64,000 nucleotides of DNA from Klebsiella phage vB_KpM_FBKp24. Positions within the stretch are counted from its first letter, which is position 1; each line of letters begins with the position of its first letter. The position numbers and the translations under genes were made by a program. The notes under the pieces are model-generated. The model did not search any database, was not told the DNA's origin, and worked only from the letters and a program-made list of their open reading frames with translations. This document shows positions 29,281-62,456 of this stretch, piece by piece. Where the stretch lies: sequence record MW394391.1, one strand, 5' to 3'.

Positions 29281-30555
29281 TTACGCCGGATCCGGGTTAG
29301 GGATATTGACGTCACTGATACCCACCGCTACATCGGGATTAGGTTCAACGCTGTCATTTTGCTTCCTTTCGATTCGTAATTTCTCGGGGTGTTTCAGATT
29401 AAAACGACGCCGCATTTGGTAGAGATAATTGTTATCGTCGTCATCGCCGATAAATTTGATTTCATACCCAACCCGGTCAAAATAACTGTAGGTATCAGAG
29501 CGACTGTTTTTACGTTCTAATCCAACAACGACTTTCCCTTTAAACCGCTTATAGTCTTCCGTCCAACTCTGGAAATGTTTTGTTGGGAAACAGGGAGTTG
29601 AGAAGCTGATCTCGTAAACGGCTCCTCTGAACCAGGTCAGTTTATCGTCAATAAGCTGGGCGTCATTAGGGATCAACGCGATCAACCGCATCAACGGGTA
29701 AATAAGGTCCCGATGGATTGTTTCTCCTCGAAACTCACCACCAACCCTGACGATCTCTTCCCCGTTATCGTAGCCATCGGACCAGGTTGCGTTATCAAGG
29801 CTCCTGATCGCTTTCTGCCGAGTCTTTGAATCGAATTGACCCATCAGCTTAATGTAATGAAGAAACGTCTCTGTGAGCATATCACAGAGCGTAGGGTCGA
29901 TGAAAAATGATTCCGGTCGGATGTAATTTCCTTCAACGAAACCCGCTCCGGAACGAAGATACCTCAACTCAATAAACGCTTCGACGTGCTGCGGATTAAT
30001 TTCAATAGTTGCTGCGTTGTCGAGATAAAAATGTTTCTCCGGTTTATCGGGCTCACTCCACGGGAAGGTAATTTCGGTAGAGGAATAATAGTTGTGATAA
30101 CCAATAAACTCGCCACTAAAACTACTCGGGTGGTAAAATACCCGACCGTCGTTATAACGCGCTATTCCGTCGTCGTCTAAAAACAGCGCACCACAACGCT
30201 TATTTTGTTTATTCCCATACCCGTGATCAACCCACTCTTCCGGTTCCCCGGTCAATGGAGTCAGCGGAGAAAAGCTGAGCAGTTTGATAAGAATATCCAA
30301 CACCCGGGCACGTTCAGTTGCCTCGTCAATGCGAGAAAATAACAACTGACTGAATCCGTAAAGGAGAGAATCTTTCTCTTCGATAGGGGAAAGGTTTTCT
30401 TTCCAATGACGCATGGAACCAATTAAACAACTAGCGCTTCCGCCGGAGTGACCCTGCTCGTCCCAGATCTCGTAACACTCTCTTAAGAGGTCACAGGTTT
30501 CCGCGTCTAATTTGGCGAAAATGAATTCCACTTCGAAATGACTTTTCAAACTCAT
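29281..30555 (-). CDS. hypothetical protein (424 aa)
   Basis: ORF track. Confidence 0.55.
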   Translation of the reverse strand: MSLKSHFEVEFIFAKLDAETCDLLRECYEIWDEQGHSGGSASCLIGSMRHWKENLSPIEEKDSLLYGFSQLLFSRIDEATERARVLDILIKLLSFSPLTPLTGEPEEWVDHGYGNKQNKRCGALFLDDDGIARYNDGRVFYHPSSFSGEFIGYHNYYSSTEITFPWSEPDKPEKHFYLDNAATIEINPQHVEAFIELRYLRSGAGFVEGNYIRPESFFIDPTLCDMLTETFLHYIKLMGQFDSKTRQKAIRSLDNATWSDGYDNGEEIVRVGGEFRGETIHRDLIYPLMRLIALIPNDAQLIDDKLTWFRGAVYEISFSTPCFPTKHFQSWTEDYKRFKGKVVVGLERKNSRSDTYSYFDRVGYEIKFIGDDDDNNYLYQMRRRFNLKHPEKLRIERKQNDSVEPNPDVAVGISDVNIPNPDPA

Positions 30556-54590: not shown

Positions 54591-56348
54591 TCAAATCCAT
54601 TGTGCCGCACGTTCACGGATAGTACGAATACTTTCCAGAATCTTCACATCGCCGTTCAGGTAAACTGTACGCATCGCGTCTCGCTCACTTCCGCGCAACG
54701 TTTCGTACTGCTCCCGAGTCAGATCGTCTTTCAGTGTTAGCGTTCCATCATCTTCACGATAGACAATCAGATACCCTTTTGCTGACTTCTTAGTACCGTC
54801 GTCAGTTTTAGGGTTCTTCGCGATGTTGTAGTGTTTACCGTTGACTTTACCGGCGGTTGCCTTCATGGCGATGCCCAGAGTGTCGCGAGTCACAAACTGG
54901 AACTCGAAACTCCCTACCCCAAAGACAACGTTAGAGCTACAGAATCCATTCTCTTTCAAACGGGAAAGGATCCGTGTCATGGTGTTGATGTTGATCGCAT
55001 CGCCATAGATCAAACCGACGTGCGGATCCAGCTCTTTATACCCAGCGGCATTTGTGGTTCCGCCGAAGATTTCCCAGAGTATCTGTACTGCACCCTTCTG
55101 CTCTTCGATAGAAATAGGTTTCCCTGTTTTAGTCGAATAGAATTGACCATCAACACAGAAAGATTCGAAATTACCAGACGTAGCATTTTGAATCGCGACA
55201 AATTTCGTAGCATCTAAAGCAGAAGCTCCCCCTAAAACGACCATCTCTTGGGAATTGTGATTATCGCCGTCCCAAGTGTATCCGCAGAGGATATGGTACG
55301 GATTCCCGGAATCTGGACGATAGACCAGTTTACCGTCACGCGCCATAATCGCATCTTTGTTTGCGATAGCTTTGGTGGTGATGGTGTCAAAGAAGTCATT
55401 CGTATCACTGACGAAGCTGAAAACGCCAGAAGGGTAAACTTCCGTGATCAGGCGTCGTTGGAATAATTCCTCCGCCTTCGAGAGTAACTCCGCTTCTGTG
55501 ACATTAGCGTATTCAGGGGTCGCCTTCAGCTCCTCTGCGTAAACTGCAATATTCAGACAGGTTACGCTGTGTTCTGTGGCTGGGACACTACCAGCGATTT
55601 CCGAGACCGATACGTCGCCTTCTGGATTATAGAAGCGATTCGCGGTCCAGACCGAAGGGAAGCTGTCGCTCCCTTTGAAATAGATCAGCTGACCTACTGA
55701 GCTGTTCGCATCGTCAAACATCCCCGACATTCCACGTAACGCGAAGTTATGTGCCTGGTAGTCAATGAACGCTTGCGCCGCACCCGTCTCGTTAGCGTAC
55801 TGCTCCAGTACACGGCGGAAGTGTAACGCTTTCGTTGCCAACACGCACGGTTTCCAGAGTTCGTTACTCCAGAGGTCTTCGAAGTAACCGGTCAGCCACC
55901 CAAAGCCGTCGACAGTGTTTTCAATCGTCAGGAATGGAACACGAATAGGGACTAATGACCCCTCCGGTACCGCACGAATTTCGAGCGGGATATAACCCAG
56001 TTCGTGCAGCTCTTTCAGATGCGTCGATTTCACCACGCCTTTACCCAGAACCCCGTCCATGTATTCGAGGTATTCAGCCTCTACCTGATTAAACGGCGTT
56101 TTGAAGAAGTTATCAAAACTCCCGACCAACCAGCGGAGCACTAAACGCTGCAGACCCATAAATACCGAACCGTCAAAGTCCAGTGGGGTATTGAAGTACG
56201 TGTGACTTCTGGCCGTCAGGTTTTCAAAGAAGCTGTCGGTACCCAGCGGTTGTTGGTTGATGTGCCCGGTTTTATAGGCGTCACAGAGCAGGAATACCAG
56301 CGGATCTTCGGTATAGAATTTTGGGTCTTTCAGTAAAGGATTGGTCAT
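54591..56348 (-). CDS. nadV: nicotinamide phosphoribosyltransferase (NAMPT)
   Basis: LLCDAYKTGH (cf. human LLATDSYKVTH), YRPDSGNP (cf. IRPDSGNP), LIYGDAININT (cf. VIQGDGVDINT); 585 aa; host-like codon usage. Confidence 0.9.
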   Translation of the reverse strand: MTNPLLKDPKFYTEDPLVFLLCDAYKTGHINQQPLGTDSFFENLTARSHTYFNTPLDFDGSVFMGLQRLVLRWLVGSFDNFFKTPFNQVEAEYLEYMDGVLGKGVVKSTHLKELHELGYIPLEIRAVPEGSLVPIRVPFLTIENTVDGFGWLTGYFEDLWSNELWKPCVLATKALHFRRVLEQYANETGAAQAFIDYQAHNFALRGMSGMFDDANSSVGQLIYFKGSDSFPSVWTANRFYNPEGDVSVSEIAGSVPATEHSVTCLNIAVYAEELKATPEYANVTEAELLSKAEELFQRRLITEVYPSGVFSFVSDTNDFFDTITTKAIANKDAIMARDGKLVYRPDSGNPYHILCGYTWDGDNHNSQEMVVLGGASALDATKFVAIQNATSGNFESFCVDGQFYSTKTGKPISIEEQKGAVQILWEIFGGTTNAAGYKELDPHVGLIYGDAININTMTRILSRLKENGFCSSNVVFGVGSFEFQFVTRDTLGIAMKATAGKVNGKHYNIAKNPKTDDGTKKSAKGYLIVYREDDGTLTLKDDLTREQYETLRGSERDAMRTVYLNGDVKILESIRTIRERAAQWI

Positions 56349-57235
56349 TTCACGCGTCCATCTTTAGCGGTTAAATAGGATTGGGTTGGTAACCCGTCGT
56401 CGGTGATGTTTTCCCACCACACGTTAGTCGAGAAAATCTGATCGAAGGCAGCGGAAAGCTCGCCTAGTCCTTTCGAGAAAATACCGTGAGTCACGAAGAG
56501 ACTGAGCGATTTCGGGCTCTGAGTACTGAGCTTTTTCGCCAGCTCAGTGAAGGTCCACCCACCATCGCAAATGTCATCAACAACCAACAGATTACGACCT
56601 TCGATATTGTCGTTGTCCAGTAGCGTAATGTCGAGGATATTGCCGGTTTTGGTATCGCGCTTTTTGTTTGCATAAACGATAGGCGCACCACCCAAGAGTT
56701 TCGCCAGCTCTTCAGTTTTCTTCGCAGCGCCACCGTCAGGGGAAACTAACACGACGTTATTCTCCCGAATCCAATTGGCCAGGAGATTAAAGACTATTTT
56801 GGACTGCTCCAGAACGACGAGGTTTTTGATCAGGGCCGGGGTGACGTTAGAGTGCGGATCGTGTATCAACACTCGGTCTGCTTTCAGGCTGTTGAACAGC
56901 TCTGCGAATACGCCGAGGGAGAACGATTCTCCTGCATTACACACGCGGTCTTGGCGTGCGTACGGGAAATACGGTACGGTTAAATGAAGTTCTGTTTTCG
57001 CCGTATATTTACCAATACGACGAATAGCATCGACCAGCAGCAGTAAGCGGACTGCCTCACTGGAAGATTTGATACTTCCTTCTATTTTAACGATACCAAT
57101 ATCGTGCGGAGGAAGACCGTGGCGATTAATTGCAATATGTTCTTCCCCGCCCGGGAACGTTAAGTTTTCATAAAGGACGGGTTGTCCATCGAACGTAACT
57201 TTAAACATTGTAACCCCTTTAAAAATGGTAAACAA
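56345..57235 (-). CDS. prs: ribose-phosphate pyrophosphokinase (PRPP synthetase)
   Basis: PRPP-binding loop NLLVVDDICDGGWTF (cf. VLIVDDMIDTGGT); 296 aa; 4-nt overlap with nadV. Confidence 0.9.
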   Translation of the reverse strand: MFTIFKGVTMFKVTFDGQPVLYENLTFPGGEEHIAINRHGLPPHDIGIVKIEGSIKSSSEAVRLLLLVDAIRRIGKYTAKTELHLTVPYFPYARQDRVCNAGESFSLGVFAELFNSLKADRVLIHDPHSNVTPALIKNLVVLEQSKIVFNLLANWIRENNVVLVSPDGGAAKKTEELAKLLGGAPIVYANKKRDTKTGNILDITLLDNDNIEGRNLLVVDDICDGGWTFTELAKKLSTQSPKSLSLFVTHGIFSKGLGELSAAFDQIFSTNVWWENITDDGLPTQSYLTAKDGRVK

Positions 57236-57256
57236 TAATCTTCAAAATAAATATTA

Positions 57257-57796
57257 TCAGCGTGTTATCGGATTCTGGACTTTCACGTAGGTGGAAAATC
57301 GACACCGTTCGTGCCAACTAAACTCGTGAGTTTCGAGTACCCAACCCTTATGGACCGTAGTATAAGAGAGTAGTTTACCGAGCTCCTGAATAAGGTCGAT
57401 GTCTAACTTTATATTACCGTTGGAGTGAATGGGGATTTCCGTGACGTAGATCTTCTGTACACGATCGATCAATTGTTTGTAGATACTGACCCCTCCGCAG
57501 ATAACAACCTCGTTGTAGCCTCTTCTAGAGGCATCTACGGCGATATCTTCGAATGAGCTGTAGGCAATGATATCAGGGATAGATTCGAATTGAGAAGGGT
57601 TACTTGTCAGAACGTAGTGGGTACGTCCCGGTAAAGCCCGTCCTATTCCTTTTGCTGTAGTAGAGCCCATGACAATCGCTTTATTTTTGGTTTTCCTGAC
57701 GAACCATTGCATATCTTCTTCAGAACGCCAAGGGAGTTTATCGTCTTGACCAATGACGAAATCAAGATCGTGTGCTACGATGAGAGAGAAAATCAT
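57257..57796 (-). CDS. folA: dihydrofolate reductase
   Basis: IFSLIVAHDLDFVIGQDDKLPW, AIVMGSTTAKGIGRALPGRTHYVLTS, VVICGGVSIYKQL...KIYVTEI align with E. coli FolA [21 protein letters not shown] / [25 protein letters not shown] / IMVIGGGRVYEQF...KLYLTHI. Confidence 0.85.
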   Translation of the reverse strand: MIFSLIVAHDLDFVIGQDDKLPWRSEEDMQWFVRKTKNKAIVMGSTTAKGIGRALPGRTHYVLTSNPSQFESIPDIIAYSSFEDIAVDASRRGYNEVVICGGVSIYKQLIDRVQKIYVTEIPIHSNGNIKLDIDLIQELGKLLSYTTVHKGWVLETHEFSWHERCRFSTYVKVQNPITR

Positions 57797-57977: not shown

Positions 57978-59960
57978 ATGAGTACCAACTTTATATTCAT
58001 GCCAAATAATCAGTTCAGGTTGGTCGATAATGGTCGTGTCGCTAACGCTGGGAAGCTTTATATCGGTAAAGCAAACACAGATCCTACAGTCGCTGCTAAT
58101 CAGATAACCGTTACTGGTCTTGCCATTGACGGTACAAACAGTATCTTAAATCAACCAATTAATTTGGACAAGCATGGTTTCCCGTTGGACGAATTGGGAA
58201 ACGTAGTGACATTATCAGTTGACTCGCACTATAGCCTTGCTATCTTTGACGCGTACAGTAAACTACAACAATCAGTCAGTGCAGTGGAAATTAATGAGGT
58301 CGAGAGTTTTTCCTCCCTGCGTACATTACCTGTTCTCCGCGCCGGTCAAAGAGTTAGAGTGAAGGCTCATACAGCCGGAACTTCCTTGGGTGGCGGGGAG
58401 TTTATCGGTGTGTTGGGTACAAAAGCTGATGACGGCGGCGTTGTGGCCTCAGGTAGCGGCTTTTACTGGGTGAGGGTTATCAACGGTGTGGTAAATGTCG
58501 ATAACTTCGGCGCGCGGGGCGACGGGAGTGCAGACGATACTAACGCTATTCTCGCCGCACTTAACTACGCCATTGCTAATGGTATCTCCGTAGAGTTTAC
58601 CGCGAATAAAACTTACAAGATTACCGGCAGTACCGGGCTCAGTTTTGATATTGGTAAAATTTCCGTTGGTTGTTACAATGGTCGGGCTAAGCTGGATTTT
58701 AGCGGCTTCACTGGTACTACCGCTATCAACGTTTATTCTTCGTTAACTTATCCAACCTCCATGTACAGAAATACCACAAACCGTTTAATAGGACTGGAGG
58801 TATTTGGTGGGTTAACTACCGGGGTAAATGGGTTGTTAGTCGGTAATGACACTTACGATTACAACGGTCAAACTATTATTCAAAACTGTTCGTTCTTCCG
58901 GTTTGATAACGTGGTACTTTGCGCGAAGAATACGTGGCGAACCAAGTTTATCGCTTGTACGATTTCTACCGGGATAAGTAATATATTTTACGCGCCATCT
59001 GGTATTCTTAATTCTGGTGAAAGTATTACATTTAGCGATTGTCAGATTAGTGATTCTAATAACGCCCCTTTCACGGTTGCTTGCTCAAACTTCGCGATCG
59101 GCTTTATTGGTTCGTCGGTATTGAACACTCGATTAGTCATCAGCGGTTCGGGTAGCGTTGTCAGTATCGAAGGGATGAGTAATTTTGAAAACCCCAATGC
59201 CAAAAACTACTATCGGTTTGCTGAAGTTACCGGCGCCGGAGCGCGGCTGATTATCAGTTACTCAACGGTGGTCTGTAACACCCCTGCTATCCAAACAAAA
59301 CCACTATTTTACGTAGGGGCAAACGCATTCATCATTTTCAATGGAGTTAAACTCCAAGGTAATAGTTATCCTTTCGAATTGGATGCTACAGGACCAGGTA
59401 ACCGCCGGTGGATAGAAGGACCAGGATTTGTTTTTGCCACGGGCTGTACTTGTGATATTCTTTCTGGTGCAGGTAATATCCCGCTACATGAATCATTATC
59501 GCCGATTCGAAATTGGGATTTTGAAAGTGGTGATTTGAGTGACTGGGCTATTAATAACTCAGGATCTTCTGCTCAAACCGCGGTAGTATCGTCGACTTCC
59601 AGTAAAGTAGGTACGTATGGTTTACGGTTAACGTCAGTTAGCGGATTGAATATCTTCGCTACGTCTACATTTAGCGTGAAACCGGGTAGGTACTTCGCCA
59701 CCAGTTTCTGGGGACGAGTTGTTACGGCTAATGCCGGGGCAACGTCTGCAGGTAACTTAACACTCAGTTTTAAAACGGACGCAGGCGTGCAGATTAATGC
59801 ATTAACTGCTAATCTTCCTTCGAGTGTTACCGACTGGGCAGTTTACGGTGCCTTCATTCAGGGAGTTGTCCCACGTGGTGCTGCGAGAGCGGAGATTTCT
59901 TTACGAGCTTCTCAGGGCGCAGTTGTTGACTTTGATTCGGTTCTTTTCAATATGTTTTAA
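57978..59960 (+). CDS. tailspike / depolymerase-like protein (beta-helix) with C-terminal carbohydrate-binding-like domain
   Basis: VDNFGARGDGSADDTNAILAALNYA is a canonical pectate_lyase_3 start motif; N-terminal region paralogous to 37738-40416; Gly/Ser/Asn-rich beta-helix composition; 660 aa. Confidence 0.8.
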   Translation: MSTNFIFMPNNQFRLVDNGRVANAGKLYIGKANTDPTVAANQITVTGLAIDGTNSILNQPINLDKHGFPLDELGNVVTLSVDSHYSLAIFDAYSKLQQSVSAVEINEVESFSSLRTLPVLRAGQRVRVKAHTAGTSLGGGEFIGVLGTKADDGGVVASGSGFYWVRVINGVVNVDNFGARGDGSADDTNAILAALNYAIANGISVEFTANKTYKITGSTGLSFDIGKISVGCYNGRAKLDFSGFTGTTAINVYSSLTYPTSMYRNTTNRLIGLEVFGGLTTGVNGLLVGNDTYDYNGQTIIQNCSFFRFDNVVLCAKNTWRTKFIACTISTGISNIFYAPSGILNSGESITFSDCQISDSNNAPFTVACSNFAIGFIGSSVLNTRLVISGSGSVVSIEGMSNFENPNAKNYYRFAEVTGAGARLIISYSTVVCNTPAIQTKPLFYVGANAFIIFNGVKLQGNSYPFELDATGPGNRRWIEGPGFVFATGCTCDILSGAGNIPLHESLSPIRNWDFESGDLSDWAINNSGSSAQTAVVSSTSSKVGTYGLRLTSVSGLNIFATSTFSVKPGRYFATSFWGRVVTANAGATSAGNLTLSFKTDAGVQINALTANLPSSVTDWAVYGAFIQGVVPRGAARAEISLRASQGAVVDFDSVLFNMF

Positions 59961-59983
59961 ATAAAAAAAATAAGTAGTCATAG

Positions 59984-60014
59984 CCCTAGGGGATCCGTAA
60001 TGGATCCCCTAGGG
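59984..60014. terminator. perfect 13-bp palindromic hairpin (ccctaggggatcc gtaat ggatcccctaggg); T-run only on minus-strand side
   Basis: Lies between tailspike stop (59960) and stop of the convergent minus gene (60038); acts as rho-independent terminator mainly for the minus gene. Confidence 0.55.
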
Positions 60015-60037
60015 TACGTTCGCGCCGGAAAGCGGAA

Positions 60038-60760
60038 TTATTTAAACGCCGGGTGAAGTTTGATCACTTTCACTTCCGCAGCGAGAGCTTTGTCAGCTTT
60101 GGCTTCGGCGAGGTCGATGGCTTGCTGGAGGTTAACCCAGAATTCGACAGTGGTTTTGGTGGCTTTTGCCAGGCGGTAGGCGGTGCGGATGGTCAGTTTG
60201 GATTTACCGTCGAGCAGACGCGACAGCGTTGACGTTGCCAGGCCGATGTGTTTGGCGAAATCAGTCGGGGCGATACCAGCGGGTTCCAGGTACTCTTTCA
60301 GGAGAATTTCACCTGGAGTGGAGGGTTTGCGTGCTTTTGCCATTTTTTGGTATTCCTTTGGTTTATAAGGAGAAGTTAGTGGTGCGTTGTTACACAATAC
60401 TACTTCTTGACGTGAAAGATTACCCGGAAAGAGAATCGATCCGACGACGAAAATCTCTTGTTTTAAACCGTCCGGGGTATTACGGAACAGCGTAATCTGA
60501 TTTTTGTTTTTCGCCAGAAGATCGGTGAGTAGTTTCACGTAATAATCTGACGGGTTATCGAGATCGCGTAGCAGGAGAACCTCGGCTTCCGCGAAACTGA
60601 TCCTCTTCTCCTGCACTATCGACATTTGCAGCGGGAACTTCAGTTTATGGACCAGGATATCGTACGGTAACGAAATCACCTCTTTCGGATTATTCTCTTT
60701 ATCAAGAATATACCGATTGAGTTCTTCGTCTTTGATGTCTTTGTTCACGTAGTGAATCAT
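60038..60760 (-). CDS. HigA-type (HTH-XRE antitoxin-like) domain protein, in-frame fusion with unknown 139-aa N-terminal domain
   Basis: C-terminal 100 aa (from internal ATG 60343 with AAGGA SD) MAKARKPSTPGEILLKEYLEPAGIAPTDFAKHIGLATSTLSRLLDGKSKLTIRTAYRLAKATKTTVEFWVNLQ matches HigA/antidote HTH family (PGEIL.EEFLEP.G.S...LA..LGV....I..I..GKR.I....ALRLA..FGTS.EFWLNLQ); this part uses host-preferred codons, N-terminal part does not. Confidence 0.6.
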   Translation of the reverse strand: MIHYVNKDIKDEELNRYILDKENNPKEVISLPYDILVHKLKFPLQMSIVQEKRISFAEAEVLLLRDLDNPSDYYVKLLTDLLAKNKNQITLFRNTPDGLKQEIFVVGSILFPGNLSRQEVVLCNNAPLTSPYKPKEYQKMAKARKPSTPGEILLKEYLEPAGIAPTDFAKHIGLATSTLSRLLDGKSKLTIRTAYRLAKATKTTVEFWVNLQQAIDLAEAKADKALAAEVKVIKLHPAFK

Positions 60761-60815
60761 TTTGTTCTCCTTTATTTAAAGATTGGTGACCGTTTGTTGC
60801 CACCAACCGCCAAAA

Positions 60816-61250
60816 TTATTTGGTATAAACGAACCCGCTTAATGTCATACCTACCAAAGGATACGGTTTGACATTCTCTTCGTTGTCTAACATAATGGCA
60901 ACAACGGAGAGCGTAGGATATTCAGGGTCGGTTATGCGGTATTCCCCGCCCAGAAGAACTTTCCTTTTCTGTCTTTCAACTACTCCGATATGCGGTACTA
61001 AAACAGAGAAGTTCCCTTCCCGCGTCATGACGAAAGGGACACTAACTGAGAAACCGATATACTCTTTCTCCCCAGGGGGCGCAAACATAAGAGTATCGAC
61101 GATTATAGCAGAGTGCCCCTTAAGTTCATGCCCAGAAAAATCAGCGCGAGCTTTGAGGAAATCAAGCAATGGTAAGGGACCAGGTCTAGTTATCGGTACC
61201 CAGAGGTTACTAAATTTTTTTGCTTCCACGTTATGAATTCCTTCAAACAA
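60816..61250 (-). CDS. hypothetical protein (144 aa)
   Basis: ORF track. Confidence 0.5.
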   Translation of the reverse strand: MFEGIHNVEAKKFSNLWVPITRPGPLPLLDFLKARADFSGHELKGHSAIIVDTLMFAPPGEKEYIGFSVSVPFVMTREGNFSVLVPHIGVVERQKRKVLLGGEYRITDPEYPTLSVVAIMLDNEENVKPYPLVGMTLSGFVYTK

Positions 61251-61270
61251 TTAGTTAGTTACAAAGTACG

Positions 61271-61666
61271 TTATCCGATAGTGATAATACGTTCTTCAAA
61301 TCTGAGCGGGTTAGGAATGTTTACGTCATCCATTTCTGAAAGGTAATACGCGGCAAGTTCCCGCGTAAAGAGAGAAACACTCGTCTCAGATAATGCGAGA
61401 GCGTCTGCAACTTTGATGACAATATTGTTCCAGAAGTCGCTTTTTACTTTCACTTTTAGCGTAGGGAACTTCCCGTCGGCAATAAAATCTAGACCGTATT
61501 CAAACGTCAGATGGTCAGAACAACCATAATCCGTTTCGACGTGCAAATCCGATAACCTCCCTCTTAGTTTCTCCTCAGTCATCGTAGGCATGACTATACA
61601 TAGGTCGATATCATTTTCGTTCTTCTCTGCATTGCAAAGAATGAAGACCATTCGCTGACTGCTCAT
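61271..61666 (-). CDS. hypothetical protein (131 aa)
   Basis: ORF track. Confidence 0.5.
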   Translation of the reverse strand: MSSQRMVFILCNAEKNENDIDLCIVMPTMTEEKLRGRLSDLHVETDYGCSDHLTFEYGLDFIADGKFPTLKVKVKSDFWNNIVIKVADALALSETSVSLFTRELAAYYLSEMDDVNIPNPLRFEERIITIG

Positions 61667-61667
61667 T

Positions 61668-62078
61668 TTATTCTCCTTTTAAGTCCCTTAAATCAATAAG
61701 ACCATCGCAGTAACAGATTTTGAGATAATGTTCCTCGCCCTGAATAAATTTTACAATAGCCTCATTTACCCCTGTATCAATTATTTCGATACAACACAAA
61801 GAGACGGATAGTTCAGGATGGGATTTTTTTATTAAGTACGATAACTTCCTTGTGTTTTCCCGAATACCTTCTAAAGGAGATAAGTACTCGACCAAGACCA
61901 CTTTGTCATCTATTCTGCCTATGATAAAGGAAGCCCCAGTCGATAAATGACTGATCGGGTCTGGTATATTGTAGGGCTTAATGGTAAATTTACGGTCGCT
62001 ACCTATCAGCGTAAAGTCATACGTCCCCTCTTGTAGACCCGGTACAACATTTAAACCAAAGATACTCTCGATATCCAT
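61668..62078 (-). CDS. hypothetical protein (136 aa)
   Basis: ORF track. Confidence 0.5.
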   Translation of the reverse strand: MDIESIFGLNVVPGLQEGTYDFTLIGSDRKFTIKPYNIPDPISHLSTGASFIIGRIDDKVVLVEYLSPLEGIRENTRKLSYLIKKSHPELSVSLCCIEIIDTGVNEAIVKFIQGEEHYLKICYCDGLIDLRDLKGE

Positions 62079-62090
62079 TTTCCCTCTCTC

Positions 62091-62456
62091 TTAAGGCATG
62101 ACAACCCAATAAGGATCGTCGAGATTGTCGGCGCACCACCGCGCAACCTTTAAGAATTCTTCAAAGTCAGAAAACCCAATATTGTTGCGTTGTTCTTTCG
62201 TCATAGGCCAGCGCGTCAGTAACTGAAGTTTCTCCAGGAAGAAGTCATCTATTTTACCGTAACAAATCCCATCTTTTTCTCGTCCACTGAAAACAATATT
62301 GAGATAGTTGTTAGTGAAGTTGGCCACCGAATAATAAGTGGAATGGTTAATGAACAATGAATTATCCATTGGGCAGGTACTGGGGACTTGCGCAAAAAGT
62401 TTATTGCCGTCCTCGGTGTCTTCTTTGAGCTCACCAAATTGAAATAAGATTGCCAT
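62091..62456 (-). CDS. hypothetical protein (121 aa)
   Basis: ORF track. Confidence 0.5.
   Translation of the reverse strand: MAILFQFGELKEDTEDGNKLFAQVPSTCPMDNSLFINHSTYYSVANFTNNYLNIVFSGREKDGICYGKIDDFFLEKLQLLTRWPMTKEQRNNIGFSDFEEFLKVARWCADNLDDPYWVVMP

Follow-up and report, generated by a model that had tools for sequence, protein, structure and literature searches.

Within a 64,000-nucleotide stretch of the genome of Klebsiella phage vB_KpM_FBKp24 (MW394391.1), referred to here in its whole length as the window, a single minus-strand open reading frame (ORF) joins a C-terminal module of the HigA antitoxin family to an N-terminal domain of no known family. Comparison with related sequences identifies this gene as an old orphan HigA of the chimalliviruses that has, in one clade, been joined to a private domain, and the data exclude an assembly artefact, a complete toxin-antitoxin module, a fresh capture from the host and an N-terminal domain derived from the HigB toxin. 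The protein's probable targets are host DNA or host toxins. The reading that we place first, with a probability of roughly 0.4, is that it would work in the cytoplasm as a host-directed factor, its HigA module binding DNA and bringing along an effector domain specific to the clade. That orphan HigA genes occur in phages was already known from annotation, and one such protein has been localised in infected cells; new here are the evidence that the fusion is conserved, the account of how it evolved and a lead towards a fold resembling the beta' subunit of RNA polymerase.

By profile comparison, the C-terminal module (residues 140-240) is a member of the HigA family. It scores 83.5 bits (E = 7e-24) against TIGR02607, the HigA equivalog model, for which the cutoff is 47.7, and 35.3 bits against HTH_3 (cutoff 23), and it also matches PHROG 1381 ('plasmid antitoxin with HTH domain'); the original prediction, which had assigned a HigA/XRE helix-turn-helix (HTH) signature to this part of the protein from the sequence alone, is thus borne out by profile search. 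The module has the HTH core of approximately 80 residues common to the family members of Proteus vulgaris (4MCX/6CHV), Pseudomonas aeruginosa (6JPI), P. putida (GraA, 6F8H) and Coxiella (VapI, 3TRB), retains the family motifs PGEIL... and ...FW.NLQ, and is invariant at its HTH positions among the fused proteins. Its best solved structure is YbaQ of E. coli (PDB 2EBY; E = 9e-18, 45% identity over 82 residues), a chromosomal, single-domain protein of 113 residues that lacks the phage N-terminal domain and is named in the PDB only as a putative HTH-type regulator; Coxiella VapI follows, and then the HigA proteins of Proteus and Pseudomonas. Unlike the HigA antitoxins of HigBA systems, the phage gene has no HigB partner and is carried by a lytic phage. 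Whereas the usual HigA is a single domain of some 90-110 residues, the phage ORF encodes 240, of which 139 are extra residues at the N-terminus, and the usual size would fit only a hypothetical product begun at Met140.

The same fusion is found throughout the close relatives of the phage. The region shares 97.8% identity with Klebsiella phage vB_KpM_Centimanus and approximately 79-81% with KpLz-2_45, of the genus Siatvirus, and with relatives of the latter, all of these genomes being ~300 kb long. The genus is assigned to Chimalliviridae, the family of nucleus-forming jumbo phages, and the window encodes vertex and internal-head proteins of phiKZ type; judged by these sequences, the phage belongs with Siatvirus in that family. 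A tblastn search with phiKZ RNA polymerase and chimallin proteins gave nothing within the 64-kb window. A single coding sequence of 240 or 241 residues is annotated in Centimanus, KpLz-2_45, MJ359 and LPKP23, and the in-frame fusion with no stop between its parts, as first read from the one sequence, is preserved in 11 GenBank records, all from Klebsiella phages of ~300 kb, as well as in 18 clusters of metagenomic proteins. Indels among these relatives, including those in the linker between the domains, are all multiples of three. The frame is therefore the same in independent records and preserved through every indel, which excludes the frameshift at the junction against which the original prediction had advised a check. 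In its broader form, the concern would be that sequencing or assembly error joined two genes, or that a non-coding stretch upstream of higA happened to stay open, and the internal ATG with its own Shine-Dalgarno sequence and the change of composition at the junction might be taken to favour this. The comparative data refute it, however: independent assemblies agree on the frame, the N-terminal part evolves as a coding sequence and a strong Shine-Dalgarno sequence precedes the 5' start, leaving an artefact with next to no chance of being the explanation.

Against the KpLz-type lineage, the ratio of non-synonymous to synonymous divergence (dN/dS) is 0.08 in the N-terminal core, 0.70 in the linker and 0.10 in the HigA module, a pattern in which both domains are under purifying selection and the linker is relaxed. 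A distant syntenic lineage (protein P0056, locus L012) is still fused, with an N-terminal domain that is 32% identical and a HigA module that is 86% identical to those of the window, compared with 57% for DHFR and 47% for the upstream gene of the same lineage; on these figures the HigA module is unusually conserved, while the N-terminal domain is fast-evolving with its frame kept. Synonymous divergence (dS) also differs within the gene, being 0.69 in the HigA part, under half of the 1.6 found in the N part, and the HigA part is 82% identical at the DNA level to a lineage in which the N part is only 46% identical; recombination of the module and constraint at the nucleotide level are both possible sources of the low value. 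A seemingly standalone HigA of 101 residues (P0019) turned out to be merely cut by the end of its contig, a word-indexed protein search returned only distant standalone HigAs and two truncated copies of the fusion (P0019 being one of them), and a scan of IMG/VR added one further locus only. One fused protein (P0004), 98% identical over the N-terminal-domain query, is encoded on a contig of 306,749 bp filed by NCBI under Klebsiella pneumoniae, which appears to be a whole jumbo-phage genome within a bacterial isolate assembly.

The linker is the most variable segment of the protein, with in-frame indels, and it harbours the internal ribosome-binding site that the original prediction had placed ahead of Met140. 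That site is present and of near-median predicted strength: the internal AAGGA is predicted to pair with the anti-Shine-Dalgarno sequence at -5.6 kcal/mol, a value reached by only 9% of internal in-frame ATGs, against a median of -6.0 kcal/mol over the gene starts of the window, while the 5' start of the fused frame, at -8.7 kcal/mol, is stronger than that median. The internal AAGGA is unchanged across all fused lineages, divergent L012 included, and a standalone orthologue has the same AGGA-N10-ATG spacing at an ATG that is its real start. Synonymous sites near the junction are conserved in 6 of 8 cases, as against 25 of 86 elsewhere, an excess compatible with a region of internal initiation that has been kept. 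A free HigA of 11 kDa may thus be made from the internal start in addition to the fused protein.

An abrupt switch in codon usage had been claimed for the same point, and this claim stands in part. GC content does jump at the junction, the N part having 0.42 and the C part 0.545 (the latter among the top 0.5% of 101-codon windows from the phage's own genes), but the bulk of the jump falls at codon position 2 (0.24 to 0.44) because the amino-acid composition differs, the HigA module being rich in Ala, Thr, Arg and Pro and the N part in Asn, Ile, Lys and Asp. At third positions, GC rises from 0.50 to 0.59 (Fisher p = 0.15 for the N against the C part; the C value lies in the top 6% of windows), and the C part has 60 codons ending in G or C, where phage usage applied to its amino acids would give 47. 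The compositional step is real, the synonymous shift is modest and together they are not what a freshly acquired host gene would show.

Comparisons outside the clade likewise contradict the proposal of a captured host antitoxin, taken in the sense of a recent capture. A scan that covered 185,579 species of bacteria and archaea, with one genome for each, found its best HigA relatives at 35-50% identity to the module; they are scattered over many phyla, the closest of them is not from Enterobacteriaceae, and the top Enterobacterales match among those listed comes from Pantoea (44%). Plasmids yield 701 HigA matches, Klebsiella accounting for 116, and none exceeds 48.6% identity. Distant phage contigs (L005-L010), by comparison, encode a standalone HigA of 104 residues, 62% identical, at the syntenic position. 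In three of these (L005, L007 and L008) the standalone higA is immediately followed by a DHFR-Prs-NAMPT block, of which the lineage's other loci have only DHFR beside the gene, and Prs and NAMPT are 75-77% identical to those of the window. The syntenic standalone gene, the spread of orphans among chimalliviruses and a host identity of no more than 50% therefore mark the module as an old phage accessory gene, one that, as dated by these comparisons, is older than this phage genus. The 70 nucleotides before the internal ATG align with the 5' untranslated region of the standalone higA (z = 3.55, p = 0.001), and the in-frame stretch upstream of the gene in L006 reads LLCLNN...QEYLPM where the fusion has VLCNN...KEYQKM. 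Either the fusion arose when an upstream ORF read through into the old untranslated region, or loss of the N-terminal domain by deletion gave rise to the standalone form.

Among bacteria, the relatives of the module keep the company expected of antitoxins. A search with the HigB hidden Markov model (HMM; PF05015) finds a HigB gene directly upstream of higA at 54 of the 80 closest bacterial loci, a gene order that identifies these relatives as bona fide antitoxins. With the same model, six-frame translations of the window and of 15 related phage loci gave no match, and Centimanus is described as obligately lytic (PMC13436347); the description of the gene as an antitoxin without its toxin, in a lytic phage, therefore holds. 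A complete HigBA toxin-antitoxin module was rejected as an identity for the locus, the toxin not being detected in the window.

The N-terminal domain (residues 1-139) is as isolated as the original prediction supposed when it left that part of the protein without a family. It has no match in Pfam, NCBIfam, PHROG or PADLOC, and its only relatives among 1.84 billion representative proteins, searched exhaustively by profile, are fused proteins; an extra profile match (P0057, E = 1.7e-4) is a Cys-rich, lipoprotein-like protein and was judged spurious. The partner domains known for XRE-type HTH regulators (peptidase, cupin, TPR and others), which would point to an ordinary two-domain transcription factor, were looked for and not found: the domain matches no family, and its top fold matches are to RNA polymerase beta'. 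An AlphaFold2 model built from eight sequences has a mean predicted local distance difference test score (pLDDT) of 69 and a predicted template-modelling score of 0.63, with residues 11-100 at 75-92, and consists of several helices followed by strands, three of them at the end. In Foldseek searches of the PDB this model exceeds a probability of 0.5 only for the beta' chains of phage RNA polymerases, at a template-modelling (TM) score of ~0.42, and its top match in BFVD is a 233-residue protein of the chimallivirus Ea35-70 (probability 0.97, TM 0.50). None of the Foldseek E-values is significant, and a beta' likeness sought at the level of sequence, by hhalign against phiKZ gp55 and by HMM search of PDB sequences, gave nothing. 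Chimalliviruses encode the N-terminal half of beta' as a separate subunit. On the evidence of the structural model it is conceivable, if improbable, that the domain is a piece of that half, copied or mimicked, which would be tethered to the chromosome through the HigA HTH and there interfere with or hijack the host RNA polymerase. In Erwinia phage AH04 (L022, 1-3318), the orphan higA is found two genes after a pair of RNA polymerase subunit genes and ahead of a helicase gene, an arrangement mentioned in view of the beta'-like fold, though it may be coincidence.

Beyond the Siatvirus-like clade, HigA modules are recurrent but unfused in phages. By tblastn, the module is found in 117 of 50,697 phage records, the fused form being confined to 11 Siatvirus-like ones. 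Elsewhere it occurs as standalone orphans of 96-110 residues, in the chimalliviruses Miami, Ea35-70, RAY and its relatives, AH04 and PCH45, as well as in ICP1, Aes012 and ZCKP1; the five phage orphans tested are all TIGR02607 members, at 71-91 bits. The orphans of PHROG 1381 (RAY gp094, Ea35-70 gp094, Miami gp155, AH04 gp81, the PCH45 gene and that of ICP1) thus share the family of the module, and in many cases the virus family of its carrier, but lack the fused N-terminal domain, which is present only in the Siatvirus-like clade. That the N-terminal domain might elsewhere be a conserved partner gene of phage higA was considered and rejected: the genes upstream of higA in RAY, Ea35-70, PCH45, AH04, Miami, L005 and L006 are unrelated to the domain, to HigB and to each other, save for the identical copies in RAY and Ea35-70. 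Among these orphans, gp094 of Erwinia phage RAY is a TIGR02607 member 43% identical to the module. When tagged with green fluorescent protein (GFP), it localises to the host chromosome, outside the phage nucleus, and the authors of that study speculate that it regulates host genes (PMC10299810). The host-DNA model is ranked first on account of this observation in a homologue.

The mechanism that this model proposes is set in the compartmentalised infection of Chimalliviridae, in which the phage DNA is enclosed in a protein shell. The fused protein would be translated in the host cytoplasm from its strong 5' ribosome-binding site, perhaps alongside the free 11-kDa HigA. Its basic HigA module would dimerise and bind the DNA found outside the phage nucleus, that is host DNA, as for RAY gp094, and the N-terminal domain would thereby be placed on the host nucleoid or near host factors there. 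The role would be one of host takeover or counter-defence, and neither addiction of the plasmid type nor regulation of phage genes. Several observations favour such a factor. The HTH is intact, both domains have been kept by purifying selection, and the fusion has persisted despite an N-terminal domain that has diverged to 32% identity; the C-terminal domain is basic and the N-terminal domain acidic. The phage falls within Chimalliviridae, and its RAY homologue is found at the host chromosome. HigA antitoxins form five-helix dimers that recognise palindromic DNA, and their control can extend from their own operon to other host genes, PaHigA with its targets mvfR and pel being an example (PMC6987408). 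Host-directed or counter-defence genes, namely NAMPT with Prs and one for a Tad3-domain protein, are neighbours. Other points weigh against this reading. The RAY result was obtained with an overexpressed GFP fusion of a single-domain homologue of 43% identity; moreover, any canonical HigA would coat DNA too, and binding of a toxin stays compatible with that result. The localisation consequently does not separate a regulator from an antitoxin, since a canonical HigA is expected to bind DNA. An effector role for the N-terminal domain would be one for which no family or activity match speaks, the full-length AlphaFold2 model is poor (pLDDT 55), and an inverted-repeat search near the gene found no operator-like palindrome conserved among relatives.

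Action on host DNA and neutralisation of host toxins are not mutually exclusive, and the latter is a close rival, possible though tentative. Here the HigA module would neutralise host ribosome-dependent mRNases of the HigB family, freed as phage shut-off depletes their labile antitoxins, with the N-terminal domain stabilising the module or adding a second anti-defence activity. The strong match to an antitoxin equivalog and the HigB genes beside most of its closest bacterial relatives argue for such a role, as do the related higBA modules on 701 plasmids, the true orphan state of the gene in the window and the 15 related loci, and the recurrence of orphan HigA in many lytic phages; DNA binding is compatible with it, as a canonical HigA does both. 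Malone reportedly found in 2020 that nucleus-forming phages shield their DNA yet are vulnerable to RNA-based immunity, and NAD-salvage and Tad3 genes are close by. T4 Dmd, a phage antitoxin mimic, is used as counter-defence. The cytoplasmic location of RAY gp094 fits as well (PMC10299810), and there are precedents in the orphan antitoxins of AdfN/DarG-like type, which act in counter-defence in phages (PMC11825919), and in a DarG2-like counter-defence protein of a chimallivirus (PMC13309987). The T4-like AdfN/DarG1-like protein, the DarG2-like protein and Dmd resemble the present case as phage-borne homologues or mimics of antitoxins, without a toxin, in lytic phages; DarG-like proteins are, however, enzymatic type IV antitoxins or have unrelated folds, unlike the HTH module here. 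To our knowledge, a counter-defence role in a phage has yet to be demonstrated for a type II HTH antitoxin, and experimental cases of a phage HigA neutralising a toxin are not known. Type II antitoxins are, moreover, usually specific to their cognate toxin (PMC11825919), and the module is at most 50% identical to the bacterial and plasmid HigAs found. Nor does an arms race with diverse toxins predict its unusual conservation.

A regulator of phage genes, fused in the manner of Aca proteins to an anti-defence protein under its control, is unlikely, because the phage DNA is enclosed and the sole homologue examined is excluded from the phage nucleus. It has its attractions: the HTH domains of Aca9, Aca10 and AcrIIA1 resemble HigA2/GraA, acr-aca operons share the order of effector followed by HTH, and fusions of Aca/AcrIIA1 type tie a HigA2/GraA-like HTH to a fast-evolving effector, as here (PMC9410906). 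The N-terminal domain is indeed fast-evolving beside a conserved HTH, and depositors have labelled the gene as a transcriptional or CII-like regulator. In AcrIIA1, however, an N-terminal HTH acts on its own promoter, whereas here the HTH is C-terminal, an operator was not found and the phage DNA is compartmentalised. The gene, furthermore, is the last of a long operon, preceded by a gap of just 55 nt in which no palindrome is conserved, the upstream genes vary between relatives, and the N-terminal domain is outside the anti-defence families known to PHROG, PADLOC and Pfam. More doubtful still is that the fusion is a degenerate HigB-HigA pair, the N-terminal domain being a diverged and possibly inactivated toxin of RelE/HigB fold. 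The order of the parts is that of higBA, the predicted secondary structure has several helices and then three final strands, and hhalign gives a weak match at the equivalent helix-loop-strand (E = 0.03 for a single comparison). Yet the probability of that alignment to the HigB profile is only 1.6%, PF05015 and RelE are matched by neither of the two divergent N-terminal domains (that of the window searched to E = 1, that of P0056 to E = 10), the C-terminal DYH catalytic motif is missing, and the standalone phage higA genes are preceded by unrelated genes. No RelE, HigB or ParE fold is among the listed fold matches of the model, and the toxin fold suspected in residues 1-139 was thus found by neither profile, hhalign nor fold search.

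Table 1. Features of the fused gene and of its surroundings, in coordinates of the window.
Feature	Coordinates	Strand	Remarks
Complete fused ORF	60038..60760	minus	240 aa, one uninterrupted frame; ATG 60758-60760, TAA 60038-60040
Shine-Dalgarno AAGGAG for 5' start	60767..60772	minus	6 nt before ATG 60758-60760
N-terminal domain core, residues 1-125	60386..60760	minus	acidic (isoelectric point, pI, 5.7), alpha/beta, confined to this phage clade
Variable Lys/Pro-rich linker, residues 126-139	60344..60385	minus	holds internal Shine-Dalgarno sequence; model pLDDT below 50
Internal Shine-Dalgarno-like AAGGA	60354..60358	minus	10 nt upstream of internal ATG
Internal ATG (Met140)	60341..60343	minus	homologous to start codon of standalone phage higA
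HigA-type module, residues 140-240	60041..60343	minus	basic (pI 9.8); TIGR02607, HTH_3, PHROG 1381
TIGR02607 match	60095-60331	minus	residues 144-222
HTH_3 match	60140-60301	minus	residues 154-207
Bidirectional-terminator-like inverted repeat, perfect 13 bp	59984..60014		between fused ORF and convergent tail-spike gene
NAMPT	54591-56348	minus	block beside HigA fusion
Ribose-phosphate pyrophosphokinase (Prs)	56345-57208	minus	same block, 54591-57796
DHFR	57257-57796	minus	same block, 54591-57796

The fused gene forms the 3' end of a long operon (Table 1) and is separated from the next gene upstream by a gap of only 55 nt. Within this gap, a 24-nt imperfect palindrome (60783-60806, TTGGTGAC-N8-GCCACCAA) occurs in the window and in Centimanus only, and is absent from other relatives. 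A promoter scan near the gene gave only weak consensus matches, and a search for structured RNA at the junction, covering 59500-61500, returned no Rfam match at E <= 1. The stem of the 13-bp hairpin on the 3' side is maintained in relatives by compensatory changes. The same hairpin forms the boundary of a swapped cassette, the plus-strand tail-spike gene at 57978-59960, homology to Centimanus starting only at the 3' end of that gene; at this locus Centimanus carries a different tail protein on the minus strand, L012 two tail spikes and L015 a CHAP-domain protein. On the other side of the fusion, the small minus-strand genes at 60816-62456 vary in comparison with L001-L004, L012 and L015-L018. 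One of them, an ORF of 144 residues (60816-61250), is found in the window, Centimanus and L012, and is absent from the KpLz-type loci L002-L004. The interval looks like an indel hot spot of ORFs without family matches.

Beyond the tail-spike cassette, the NAMPT-Prs-DHFR block may represent a counter-defence that restores nicotinamide adenine dinucleotide (NAD+), and in phage Miami a gene for nicotinamide mononucleotide adenylyltransferase lies ~2 kb from higA. Further away in the window, a protein of 424 residues (29281-30555, minus strand) matches at its N-terminus PF25185, the Tad3 inhibitor of type I Thoeris, with 96.9 bits; going by this family match, the gene probably serves in anti-defence.

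Nucleus-forming jumbo phages keep their DNA out of reach of host nucleases, yet they translate in the cytoplasm, where they face the host chromosome and defences that act at the level of RNA. The fusion of a HigA module to a private domain, kept under selection, points to a recurrent and unexplored host-directed role of HigA modules in lytic phages. Centimanus, a close relative, is already in use in a therapeutic cocktail, and accessory genes that affect host range are therefore relevant. Should the module prove to neutralise toxins of HigB type, it would be the first demonstrated case of a type II HTH antitoxin co-opted by a phage as counter-defence; were the N-terminal domain truly beta'-like, the protein would be a new kind of shut-off or decoy factor for host transcription, made from an antitoxin module. 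If host DNA is its target, the fusion would offer a compact system with which to explore how chimalliviruses manipulate a host nucleoid that they leave undegraded.

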